Source: Escherichia phage nieznany. From it: a DNA stretch of 64,000 bases. Positions 676 to 7,429 of this stretch are shown in pieces; the first letter of the stretch is position 1; every line of letters begins with the position of its first letter. The translations under genes and the position numbers were made by a program. A model generated the notes under the pieces. The model did not search any database, was not told where the DNA came from, and worked only from the letters and a program-made list of their open reading frames with translations. Location: sequence record NC_052659.1; one strand, given 5' to 3'.

Positions 676-703
676 TTGACATACTTTTTAATCTTGTTAA
701 GAT
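676..703 (+). promoter_or_regulatory. sigma70-like promoter (TTGACA-16-TAAGAT)
   Basis: -35 TTGACA 676-681 and -10 TAAGAT 698-703, about 30 nt upstream of ATG 734. Confidence 0.5.
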
Positions 704-733
704 CAACTCCTACCAAACAAAAGGAGAAAACAA

Positions 734-1177
734 ATGCAAAACATCCAAAACATCAAACTGACTTGGCCCGAAGCTAAAGAAGCAATGAAGGAAGGTAGAC
801 GTGTTGAGCACCGCCATTTTTGTGGTGGCGAATGGTTTGAGATGCGAGATGGTGTTATTCTCGACGAACAAGGTTATAACATGGAAACTTGGTTCAGAGG
901 GGAAGCTTGGCAGGAAGAGGGTTGGTCTGTAATTGAAAAAGAAGACAGTAAGGAAGAAGGCGTGTTGTCTAATGTAGAACGCGAGATGAGGGAAACAAAG
1001 ATACCTGCTTTGGATTTTGTATACCTGGAAGAACTTGTGGCAGCATCTTTTGTAGCAGGAAACCTTTGGAATACACCTGTTAGCCGACTGGAGAACCAAA
1101 ATAACCCGTCTACTCGTAATCACAAGCTTTATAAGGGTAAAGGCCACAACAAATTAAAGAAAGGAAAGAAGAAATGA
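734..1177 (+). CDS. DUF2829-like protein (Tad2-like candidate sponge), Lys-rich C-terminus
   Basis: N-terminal LTWPEAKEAMKEGRRVEHRHF resembles the hallmark F/W-x-EALEALKxGKKVxRxxW opening of DUF2829 proteins; AGGAG SD upstream. Confidence 0.4.
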   Translation: MQNIQNIKLTWPEAKEAMKEGRRVEHRHFCGGEWFEMRDGVILDEQGYNMETWFRGEAWQEEGWSVIEKEDSKEEGVLSNVEREMRETKIPALDFVYLEELVAASFVAGNLWNTPVSRLENQNNPSTRNHKLYKGKGHNKLKKGKKK

Positions 1178-1320
1178 TCTACAAAAACAAGTTCACTGGT
1201 TGTCTTCGTAAATTTATCGATAAGAAAGGGTATGTTTCTCTTGACAACGGGGCTACATGGATAGAGAATGGCGCTTCAGAACAATTGATTAAAGCTTTGC
1301 CTTACTACGAGGAGGTTTAA
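1174..1320 (+). CDS. small hypothetical protein (48 aa)
   Basis: ATG overlaps the upstream stop (ATGA) and its stop TAA abuts the next ATG at 1321; below the ORF-track size cut-off. Confidence 0.35.
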   Translation: MIYKNKFTGCLRKFIDKKGYVSLDNGATWIENGASEQLIKALPYYEEV

Positions 1321-1644
1321 ATGTCAAACAGTCTGTTTAGCGTGTCAATTGCACCACGTGTCAATATCCGTTGTCAGTTTGTTACTTTACCTGGTGTAAC
1401 GCATATCACATTAGAATACGATCCTCGCTCACGAGACAACCCAATCACAGGGAAAATTGATTGTGCTTATGGAGACTTTGTTATGGATCACCAAACCCTC
1501 TTATGCTGTGTGCAACGCTTACAGGCAGGATCTTTATACATCTTTAAGAAAACAGTGTTCCAAGAGATTGCTCAAGCAGTTGAAAGCGGTATGGAGACTC
1601 TTAACGTTATGATTGAAGCAGCCAACCAGAAGGAGGTTTTATGA
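1321..1644 (+). CDS. hypothetical protein (107 aa)
   Basis: ORF preceded by GAGGAGG SD; same-strand packing. Confidence 0.5.
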   Translation: MSNSLFSVSIAPRVNIRCQFVTLPGVTHITLEYDPRSRDNPITGKIDCAYGDFVMDHQTLLCCVQRLQAGSLYIFKKTVFQEIAQAVESGMETLNVMIEAANQKEVL

Positions 1645-3861: not shown

Positions 3862-4220
3862 TGAGAAAAGTGCTGTTTGCCTTGCTGTTATTAGCCTCTG
3901 CTGGTGTTTTTGCTCGTGACGGCTTTAAGGTTGGGGCAGATCGCACTAAATTCTTCACATGGTTCGGAGGTGAAGCACTTTACCAAGACGGTAAAGATAA
4001 AATAAAATGTAAGTATGTAGAAACATTAAAAGGTGTGGATGATTGGGGTGATGCTTATCAAGCAACAGGCTTCTCTTGTAAGAAACACCTTTACATTGTA
4101 GTAAAAGAGTTTCAAGATATAAATAAACAACTTTTTATTTTAGTAGATCCTAGCAAATTTGATGAACGGACAGCTTATGAAGTTGACATGTTCTTAGAAT
4201 ACAAGAAGGAGGAAAAATGA
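3858..4220 (+). CDS. secreted/periplasmic hypothetical protein with signal peptide
   Basis: N-terminus MMRKVLFALLLLASAGVFA is a classic signal peptide; GAGGAG SD. Confidence 0.5.
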   Translation: MMRKVLFALLLLASAGVFARDGFKVGADRTKFFTWFGGEALYQDGKDKIKCKYVETLKGVDDWGDAYQATGFSCKKHLYIVVKEFQDINKQLFILVDPSKFDERTAYEVDMFLEYKKEEK

Positions 4221-4580: not shown

Positions 4581-4949
4581 ATGAAGGTATTAAACTTTTA
4601 CCATTTAGGCAAAACAATCCCAGATGGTGCTGTTTATATTGGTAGAGCAATGCCACATATGGGACTAAAAGCCTCTAAGTTTGCAAACCCTTTTAAGTTA
4701 AAAGATGATGAACCACGAGGATCAACTATACAAAGGTATAAAGAGTGGTTGTGGGAGCAAATTCGTTGTGGTAAGATCACTCTTGAAGATTTATTAGAGT
4801 TAGAAGGGAAAGATTTAGTTTGCTTCTGCTCCCCTCAACCTTGTCATGGAGATGTATTGATAGCAGCCGTGGCCTGGGCTAGAAAAGAGTGGGACAAAAG
4901 GCATCCTACTTATGTAGACAATTATTGGATTTGGGAGGAGAATTTTTGA
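4581..4949 (+). CDS. DUF4326-like protein
   Basis: Motif LVCFCSPQPCHGDVL matches the conserved Cys/HGD signature I associate with DUF4326; N-terminal YIGRAMP. Confidence 0.4.
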   Translation: MKVLNFYHLGKTIPDGAVYIGRAMPHMGLKASKFANPFKLKDDEPRGSTIQRYKEWLWEQIRCGKITLEDLLELEGKDLVCFCSPQPCHGDVLIAAVAWARKEWDKRHPTYVDNYWIWEENF

Positions 4950-5836: not shown

Positions 5837-7429
5837 GTGTCTACACAATTGAGTTTTACACCTACCGACGAACAATACGCTATTGAAAGTGGGTATCAAG
5901 AAAATCGTTTCGTTACAATTCAAGCTAAATCTGGATCAGGTAAAACGTCAACACTGTATATGTTGGCTAATGGCACAAATGATAGTATTCTATACTTGGC
6001 ATTTAACAAAAGTATGGCAGAGGAAGCTCGACGTAAAATGCCACCTAATGTTATGTGCCGAACGCTACATTCTATCTGTTATCAGCGTCTTCCACAAAAC
6101 CTTCGACACAAATTATCTCGTCCAGAAGGTCAATATGTTAACGTAGCTGGAACTGGTAGTGAGATTGCCAAAAAATTCAAGATTCAGAACTTGATTGATA
6201 AGAATGGTAAAGTGCTACTGACTCGTGCAATGATTGGGTTAATGGTAAAACAAACTTTAGCTAAATATGAGTTTTCTGACGATGAACATATTGGACATAA
6301 ACATTTTCCTAAAGTGCATATGTCAGATCTTAAACGTAAAAACATCAACGAACAAAAACTTATTAACGAAGTTGTTAAATATGCGAAGCAACTTTGGCGT
6401 GAGCGTATTGATCCTAAATCAGAAACCATTATGACTCATGACACCTATGTGAAACTCTTTGAATTGAGTAAAGAAGATTTAGGATACGATATTATTTTTG
6501 GAGATGAATTCCAGGATGTTAACCCTGCATTCCTGTCTATCCTTCGCAATGCTAAATCGGCTAAACGTATTGTTGTTGTGGGTGATGAATTTCAGAGTAT
6601 TTATCAGTTCCGTGGAAGCCAGAACATGATGAAGCAAACAGCTACATATGGGGTTGAGTTGCCTCTGACAGCTTGTTTTCGCTTTGGTCCTAAAGTTGCG
6701 GACATTGCTAATGCGATCCTTTCTGATCGCTCACCTCTGAAGCATCCGCTGGTAGGAAAAGGTTATGATACTGTCACTGGAAGTTTTCATTCTGATGTGG
6801 TAGATTATAGTAAACCTTACACCATTATTTTCCGTAAAAATTTGACTCTGTTGCTCGAAGCTATGGACCGAATTGCTAACGGAGAAGAAATTATTATTAA
6901 CGTAGATACCAAAGACTTCATTTCTATGGTTGATAGTGTTAATGCTTTACGTAGAGGTGATTTGGACAAAGTTAAGCATGAGACAGTTCTACCTTACACT
7001 TCTTGGGAAGAATTTGTAGAGTGTGCAGAATCAGATCCTGATGCAAAACGACTTTTAAACATTGTTGTTTCTGGTAAAGCTAATAATATTGCATACACTC
7101 TACGTATGCACCGTAACTCTCCAACGGCTAAAGTTACTTTAACTACAGCCCATAAATCAAAAGGTTTGGAGTGGGATCAGGTTATTGTTGCAAATGACTT
7201 CCCTTCCAATTATGATAAGAAGGGTGAGTGGGTAGGTCTTGAAGAATCAGAACGAAATCTTCTGTATGTTGCACATACACGTTGTATTAAATGTCTGCAA
7301 TGGAACCGGACTGTTCAAGAGATTTTAGACATGCATCGTTTAGGTAAGAGCACGGCTCCTGTATCCGAAGAAGATAAGCTCATAGCTGCCCTTGCTCGTA
7401 AGATTAATCAAATCAGAGAGGATCGTTAA
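5837..7429 (+). CDS. UvrD/Rep/PcrA-like superfamily 1 DNA helicase
   Basis: Walker A AKSGSGKTST, motif II GDEFQD, motif III VVVGDEFQSIYQFRG; GTG start with GAGGAG SD. Confidence 0.8.
   Translation: MSTQLSFTPTDEQYAIESGYQENRFVTIQAKSGSGKTSTLYMLANGTNDSILYLAFNKSMAEEARRKMPPNVMCRTLHSICYQRLPQNLRHKLSRPEGQYVNVAGTGSEIAKKFKIQNLIDKNGKVLLTRAMIGLMVKQTLAKYEFSDDEHIGHKHFPKVHMSDLKRKNINEQKLINEVVKYAKQLWRERIDPKSETIMTHDTYVKLFELSKEDLGYDIIFGDEFQDVNPAFLSILRNAKSAKRIVVVGDEFQSIYQFRGSQNMMKQTATYGVELPLTACFRFGPKVADIANAILSDRSPLKHPLVGKGYDTVTGSFHSDVVDYSKPYTIIFRKNLTLLLEAMDRIANGEEIIINVDTKDFISMVDSVNALRRGDLDKVKHETVLPYTSWEEFVECAESDPDAKRLLNIVVSGKANNIAYTLRMHRNSPTAKVTLTTAHKSKGLEWDQVIVANDFPSNYDKKGEWVGLEESERNLLYVAHTRCIKCLQWNRTVQEILDMHRLGKSTAPVSEEDKLIAALARKINQIREDR

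Follow-up and report, generated by a model that had tools for sequence, protein, structure and literature searches.

Does the first gene of the rightward early block of Escherichia phage nieznany encode a sponge that protects the phage from Thoeris? An earlier note on the 64,000-nucleotide stretch of this genome analyzed here (NC_052659.1; hereafter the window) had proposed that its 147-residue product is a DUF2829/Tad2-like anti-Thoeris protein. Tad2 proteins soak up 3′cADPR, His-ADPR, N7-cADPR, cyclic dinucleotides, and cCMP/cUMP; specifically, ModTad2 (9EIB) binds His-ADPR and also cCMP/cUMP (10.1101/2025.08.24.671296).

The gene and its genomic setting

The open reading frame at this locus is a real gene (Table 1). 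Its coding status is backed by 21 close homologues, which show 51–97% identity over the aligned parts and in which insertions and deletions keep the frame, and the phAPEC8 protein is 100% identical over residues 1–128. The first 3 kb of the window is 97–99% identical to Phapecoctavirus (Stephanstirmvirinae) genomes, e.g., ESCO13, ukendt, and vB_EcoM_01. Single records labeled as Acinetobacter and Pseudomonas phage also match this 3-kb region, and GenBank MG065650.1 (150.7 kb), a record titled Campylobacter phage B15, has a copy of the coliphage gene at 99% identity; the host labels of all these records look doubtful. Read from the sequence, residues 9–29 of the protein are LTWPEAKEAMKEGRRVEHRHF and its C-terminal end is ...NHKLYKGKGHNKLKKGKKK. 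Compared with ESCO13 and most homologues, the 9-bp duplication at the start of the gene adds QNI after Met-Gln-Asn-Ile.

The gene is the first rightward one at a divergent junction, the leftward genes ending at 619. The promoter-like site preceding it matches 10 of 12 consensus positions, a consensus match only, and both hexamers are identical in ESCO13 in the DNA alignment. In Klebsiella phage 05F01, a ~40% identical homologue (gene_71) is preceded by the same TTGACA...TGTTAAGAT arrangement and likewise opens the rightward side of a divergent junction, such that synteny is kept. The placement described in the earlier note, first after an early promoter, is thus borne out by a conserved, putative σ70-type site that is alike in ESCO13 and 05F01. 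That note had thus described the sequence accurately, and its reading of the ORF, the N terminus, and the Lys-rich C terminus agrees with the ORF list and the letters themselves.

Table 1. Features of the locus and of the neighboring genes, with positions in the window
Feature	Position	Strand	Basis
Phage_tudor protein (PF24144, E 5.3e-25) and DUF7325 protein (E 5.2e-24), first two leftward genes	29–313 and 326–619	−	
Putative σ70-like promoter: TTGACA, 16-nt spacer with upstream (extended) TG, TAAGAT	676–703	+	Consensus scan
Shine–Dalgarno AAGGAG, 7 nt 5′ of ATG	721–726	+	Direct reading; ribosome-binding site annotated at the same place in ESCO13
Coding sequence, 147 aa (stop codon included)	734–1177	+	ORF list, ATG start
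9-bp tandem duplication CAAAACATC ×2, giving MQNIQNIK instead of MQNIK	737–754	+	DNA alignment with ESCO13, protein alignment A1
N-terminal domain, residues 7–68: predicted minimal Tad2-fold domain, phrog_3474-like family	752–937	+	
Acidic indel-rich linker, residues 69–92	938–1009	+	Mean pairwise identity 0.64, 41% gaps (A1); pLDDT <50 over most
Conserved helix region, residues 93–111 (LDF..LEELVAASF)	1010–1066	+	Helix 95–109 predicted at low confidence
Basic C-terminal tail, residues 112–147, ending KGKGHNKLKKGKKK	1067–1174	+	Net charge +10; predicted disordered
Downstream 48-aa ORF; its ATG overlaps the stop codon of the 147-aa gene (ATGA, 1174–1177)	1174–1320	+	ORF list, sequence; annotated in ESCO13
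107-aa protein, DUF7247 end to end, E 1.4e-46	1321–1644	+	
DUF4326 protein, 122 aa, E 9.4e-22, same rightward early block	4581–4949	+	
Helicase, 530 aa, at the end of the block of small genes; its ESCO13 annotation is DNA helicase	5837–7429	+	

The 48-residue ORF immediately downstream had no Pfam match. Farther along the block, DUF4326 belongs to the rhodanese-phosphatase superfamily and is predicted to process phosphates on ADP-ribose derivatives in virus–host conflicts (Iyer et al., PMC9503650); this neighbor lends weak contextual support to an ADPr-signal theme. On the strength of that superfamily placement, a reading of DUF4326 as a NADAR domain was rejected. Downstream of the ESCO13 helicase lie two further small genes, followed by a class III ribonucleotide reductase.

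The gene has a wide distribution. By tblastn the 147-residue protein was matched in 468 phage records, 390 of them at <60% identity, and among the matches listed the latter mostly cover the N-terminal domain only. Most of the records belong to phages of Klebsiella, Escherichia, and Salmonella, and all annotated matches among those listed are called hypothetical proteins. In the T5-like Salmonella phage Seafire, a stand-alone homologue is located at 4001–4198, within the predicted terminal repeat; the terminal repeat of T5-like phages is the first-step-transfer, pre-early region. The Seafire homologue is the last gene of its operon, with an annotated terminator behind it. The T4-like phage Mineola has its homologue within the nrdH–gp55 cluster of small genes.

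Relation of the N-terminal domain to DUF2829 and Tad2

A Pfam scan of the 147-residue protein gave no family at E ≤ 10, PF11195 included, and NCBIfam and PADLOC scans found nothing. A DUF2829 HMM, which we built from 111 proteins all carrying PF11195, scored the protein at 5.7 bits (E about 1). The search against the DUF2829 profile for which the earlier note had called therefore failed. In PHROGs, the protein corresponds to phrog_22208 over its full length (E 2.7e-102), and residues 1–68 match phrog_3474, a 64-residue family (E 5.1e-30). The true Tad2 proteins ModTad2 and HgmTad2 match phrog_1048/872/30130; the window protein and its relatives match phrog_22208/3474/6670, all unannotated phage families, with no overlap between the two sets. 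By sequence-profile criteria, the 147-residue protein is not a member of PF11195. The DUF2829 HMM search found no canonical DUF2829 gene elsewhere in the 64-kb window, in which the predicted Tad2-fold domain is present as a single copy.

More distant relatives were recovered with a profile made from 22 close homologues, which was searched against 1.84 billion representatives at a threshold of E ≤ 1e-3. This yielded 189 proteins, nearly all matching profile positions ~5–65 only and most of them stand-alone proteins of 60–70 residues. Among the 146 relatives scanned, PF11195 and SEC-C (4 members) were the only recurring Pfam families, the PF11195 matches being weak and limited to 21 proteins (best E 2.9e-4). 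The family consensus reads MT..EA..AM..G.KV.H.YF...E...M..G.I.DE.GY....FW..R.....GWSI. Seven positions are at least 90% conserved, and the window protein has all eight of the best-conserved residues, A14, G21, H26, F29, E33, E45, G47, and W64. Across the family the domain is acidic (mean net charge −4.3). One relative, P0043, is a natural 175-residue protein with two tandem copies of the domain, an arrangement compatible with a dimer or higher oligomer. Another candidate, P0051 (2489 residues; 15–17 apparent domain copies), was rejected as a Tudor/Agenet repeat protein with cumulative weak similarity: its match (E 3.3e-8 over 15 stretches) reflects a short Tudor-like similarity of the G.KV..H.F..E segment and not membership.

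For the comparison with structures we used a 94-sequence alignment of the domain (A3), which served for a search of PDB sequences, for hhalign, and for a domain-only model. Three of the seven matches of the A3 profile to PDB sequences are Tad2 proteins, with SptTad2 the best (E 0.1) and 8v3e and ModTad2 both at E 1.1, and in these the alignment takes in the N-terminal helix as well as the terminal DW.IVE strand. The same profile weakly matched PhiKZ087 (PDB 9xqs_A residues 660–693, E 0.2), aligning HryFtsdEylem..G..dEdGynm with RHLLPSEFMVIN..TTLGYDM, probably by chance. The full-length profile search and the single-sequence search of PDB sequences gave nothing beyond CutA at E about 0.3, which we rejected as chance. 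When A3 was compared with the 111-sequence DUF2829 alignment, hhalign returned a probability of 93.4% (E 2.4e-7) over 36 columns, which cover the helix, β1, and β2. In global mode the probability was 85% over 69 columns, and the greedy/global alignment spans the whole domain, which compared with DUF2829 lacks about 11 residues at one point and about 15 at another. This profile–profile match is evidence, at the superfamily level only, that points to common ancestry with DUF2829/Tad2. The likeness of the N terminus to the DUF2829 opening, noted earlier, thus holds as a remote one (93% over that stretch by hhalign), but it leaves no trace in the Pfam model at E ≤ 10.

Only residues ~7–68 are modeled with confidence in the full-length AF2 prediction (pLDDT 77–88), the remainder being below 55, and the domain-only model from A3 has a mean pLDDT of 91.3 and a pTM of 0.78. 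In the model, an N-terminal helix is predicted to pack on a small antiparallel sheet. Tad2 chains fill 12 of the 14 top places in Foldseek, with query-normalised TM-scores of 0.52–0.69, although the corresponding E-values of 0.5–2.5 are not significant for a domain so small. Similar to the predicted domain, Tad2 (SPO1 gp34.65; PDB 8SME/8SMF/8SMG, 8WJE; PF11195) has an N-terminal helix followed by an antiparallel sheet, and the two share the EA..A.K.GKKV opening, the terminal (D/G)W.I strand, and aromatic residues at both ligand-stacking Trp positions (query-normalised TM-score 0.62–0.69). Both are also small early phage proteins. Thus, at the level of the fold, hhalign, Foldseek, and the AF2 domain model bear out the Tad2-like idea of the earlier note: residues 7–68 are predicted to share the Tad2 core fold and to be a distant relative of DUF2829/Tad2.

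The ligand site tells the two apart. SPO1 Tad2 holds gcADPR by W25, N26, W73, and D79, with T78, S76, D67, and H71 also contributing, and the gcADPR site of HgmTad2 comprises W21, N22, G23, W87, S90, T92, and D93. In our DUF2829 alignment, R21, W24, N25, G26, W72, S75, D78, D83, and W84 are invariant or nearly so. Residue equivalences, which we took from the hhalign profile alignment and not from coordinate superposition, place H26 of the window protein at R21, H28/F29 at W24, F or C at N25, F54 at W72, A58 at D78, and G63–W64 at D83–W84, with no equivalent of S75. Accordingly, HRHFCGG stands where Tad2 has GWNG, and WFRGEAW, in which the profile alignment shows no S/T/D equivalents, stands where Tad2 has the W..S.TD segment. 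In SPO1 numbering, counterparts are lacking for N26, S76, T78, and D79, and R21 and D83 are replaced by H and G, respectively. The conserved positions that coincide with Tad2 are A14, G21, H26, H28/F29 (at the ligand-stacking W), F54 (at the second ligand W), and W64. By the hhalign equivalences, then, the gcADPR-binding signature (W-N-G in the β1–β2 loop; W..S.(T)D before the last strand) is absent from the window protein.

The two proteins also differ in the β2–β3 insertion, which in Tad2 contains helix α2 of the dimer interface. Both hhalign and the AF2 model indicate that this insertion is absent from the window protein, and the model has a tight β-hairpin in its place. In long forms of Tad2 this insertion also provides the site for cyclic dinucleotides: HgmTad2/AcrIIA7 (8KBI), which co-purifies with c-di-GMP, binds them in an insertion of 41 residues (β2–β5) that has no counterpart in the window protein. 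Taken together, the residue equivalences suggest that two aromatic platforms are kept and that the polar contacts to the ligand, the helix used in dimerisation, and the site for cyclic dinucleotides are lost. Because the gcADPR site is conserved in about 99% of Tad2 proteins (Li et al.), its absence here represents a real departure. With the known ligand-binding residues of Tad2 missing, the protein is a candidate only and not a recognisable anti-Thoeris sponge, and the anti-Thoeris role proposed in the earlier note is unsupported. On these sequence comparisons, it is not a canonical anti-Thoeris Tad2.

A conserved basic tail

The earlier note had called the protein longer than typical Tad2. 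The Tad2-like part is in fact shorter, about 62 residues versus 85–104 (89 for SPO1 Tad2), and the rest consists of a linker, a helix, and a basic tail, none of them part of Tad2. The protein therefore exceeds Tad2 in length because of an unrelated C-terminal extension, not because of a larger Tad2 domain, and it falls below every sequence-profile threshold for that family. Most phrog_3474-type members stand alone at 60–70 residues, whereas the linker and KGKGHNKL tail are found only in Stephanstirmvirinae-type members.

Residues 71–110 carry a net charge of −5. Within the helix region, L98, E99, L101, A103, A104, and S105 are invariant in A1, and the motif D(F/Y)..LE is found again in distant two-module relatives. 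Among close homologues, conservation is highest in the tail, with a mean pairwise identity of 0.90 versus 0.78 for the domain. Moreover, it is kept as KGKGHNKLQKRKKK in relatives in which the domain is only ~40% identical (P0022, P0023, P0029, P0038, and 05F01 gene_71). With the C-terminal 60 residues as the query, we recovered fragments of the same gene only and no other protein family with this tail, and no other ORF in the window carries such a basic tail. A weak PHROG match covers the last 19 residues (phrog_27594, E 0.012).

At the same C-terminal position, four relatives (P0099, P0110, P0113, and P0118) have a genuine SEC-C zinc motif (PF02810), known from the C termini of SecA, YchJ, and YecA, and other family members (P0048, P0060, P0089, and P0109) have unrelated basic tails. 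Like SEC-C, the window tail is short, glycine-/lysine-rich, and terminal, with a similar QNN(E)P lead-in. Unlike SEC-C, it has no Cys in residues 112–147, lacks the zinc ligands of the pattern C.C...(C/H)(C/H), and gave no Pfam match. Since the tail is cysteine-free and unmatched by SEC-C, and the similarity is too short to test, the likeness to SEC-C is a positional analogy only.

Possible functions and their implications

We tentatively favor, at somewhat less than even confidence, an oligomeric Tad2-like binder of a small, probably nucleotide-derived ligand, with altered specificity. The protein, probably expressed early, is built of two modules, the predicted Tad2-fold domain (residues 7–68) and then the linker, helix, and polybasic tail. 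The domain would be a binding module acting against host defense or in host take-over; it would most likely form oligomers, as Tad2 does, and may capture its ligand at a protomer interface lined by the conserved aromatics, with a site chemistry that differs from the Tad2 gcADPR site. The tail could add affinity for a polyanionic host structure, be it RNA or the ribosome, DNA, or a membrane, or could alternatively play the role that the SEC-C zinc motif has in some relatives. Several observations are consistent with such a binder. Ligand sponges are the only proteins whose structural similarity to the domain rises above noise, aromatic residues are retained at both ligand-stacking positions, and most relatives are stand-alone proteins in the size class of known sponges. 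Early or pre-early placement is suggested by the σ70-type promoter, the synteny in 05F01, and the terminal repeat of Seafire, the tandem duplication in P0043 is compatible with oligomeric function, and a DUF4326 protein is encoded in the same block. Against it stand the lack of a PF11195 match, the difference in PHROG families from true Tad2, the loss of the polar residues that contact gcADPR (the Asn of GWNG and the Ser, Thr, and Asp of W..S.TD), and the deletion of the β2–β3 insertion with the α2 interface and the cyclic-dinucleotide site. Traits listed for known sponges, moreover, include fusion to other sponge domains and a positively charged oligomeric pocket (10.1101/2025.07.12.664507). 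The domain here is acidic overall, with conserved E33 and E45, and the scan of 146 members showed no fusion to any other known sponge domain (PF13876, PF21825, or a second PF11195); nor are basic or SEC-C tails a feature of known sponges.

These same losses weigh far more heavily on the proposal that the protein is a Tad2 in the strict sense, that is, a DUF2829 member whose tetramer sequesters Thoeris gcADPR (3′cADPR or 2′cADPR) in the conserved pocket. The shared core fold and remote homology, the aromatics at the positions of both stacking tryptophans, and the early placement would all suit it; the failed PF11195 profile, the replacement of GWNG and W..S.TD, the missing insertion used for dimerisation, the absence of a site found in nearly all Tad2 proteins (about 99%; Li et al.), and the separate PHROG families make it highly improbable. 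Other sponges, namely Tad1, Acb2, Acb4, Sequestin (PF21825), Lockin, and TadIV-1, resemble the window protein in being small, early, phage-encoded, and often stand-alone, but published descriptions set their folds apart as unrelated to the window domain. Sequestin is α-helical, Lockin is a β-rich hexamer absent from sequenced isolate phages, and TadIV-1 is said to differ in structure from every known sponge; on these descriptions, Sequestin and Lockin were rejected as identities. The loss of the Tad2 ligand signature and insertion could also be read as decay, leaving a Tad2-derived remnant or neutral ORF that has no current function. We consider this scarcely credible given conservation across a family of 189 representatives, in which seven positions reach at least 90%, the retained promoter, ribosome-binding site, and synteny, the invariant tail, and the confident AF2 model of the domain.

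A more serious competitor, though we regard it as rather unlikely, is an early protein that binds a macromolecule and is not a sponge at all. The domain would then bind a host protein or nucleic acid, leading to host take-over or to direct inhibition of a defense protein, and the polybasic tail (SEC-C in relatives) would target the ribosome, SecB, RNA, DNA, or an anionic membrane. The loss of the gcADPR signature and the acidic domain with its conserved glutamates would fit, as would the weak cumulative similarity of the family profile to Tudor repeats, which are peptide-binding barrels. The tail itself speaks for this reading, being the most conserved segment (0.90 vs. 0.78) and invariant across about 40% divergence, with true SEC-C at its position in four relatives and other basic tails elsewhere. 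However, most family members are tail-less, and the domain must therefore function alone; structural similarity above noise is seen with ligand sponges only, no partner is identifiable, and Pfam does not detect SEC-C in the tail of the window protein.

A bolder reading, which we think unlikely, would make the ~62-residue domain an unrecognised minimal branch of the Tad2 fold that captures a signal or target no known Tad2 binds, with the tail tethering it to the ribosome, SecB, or nucleic acid. If true, the protein would be a tethered sponge or an early effector directed at the translation apparatus, an architecture undescribed for any anti-defense protein.

In the literature on DUF2829 and Tad2-like proteins, no title or abstract, the parts covered, points to the ~62-residue family. 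Searches for Tad2 rely on PF11195 or on HHpred matches to PF11195, and this family falls just outside them; it is common in therapeutic-type phages of E. coli, Klebsiella, and Salmonella, and its members are invariably annotated as hypothetical. If the family binds a signal, the Tad2 fold would extend to a minimal scaffold of 62 residues, and many model coliphages would be credited with further counter-defense genes. If it binds none, the Tad2 fold would have been put to a different use, which would warn against calling proteins sponges on the strength of their fold.
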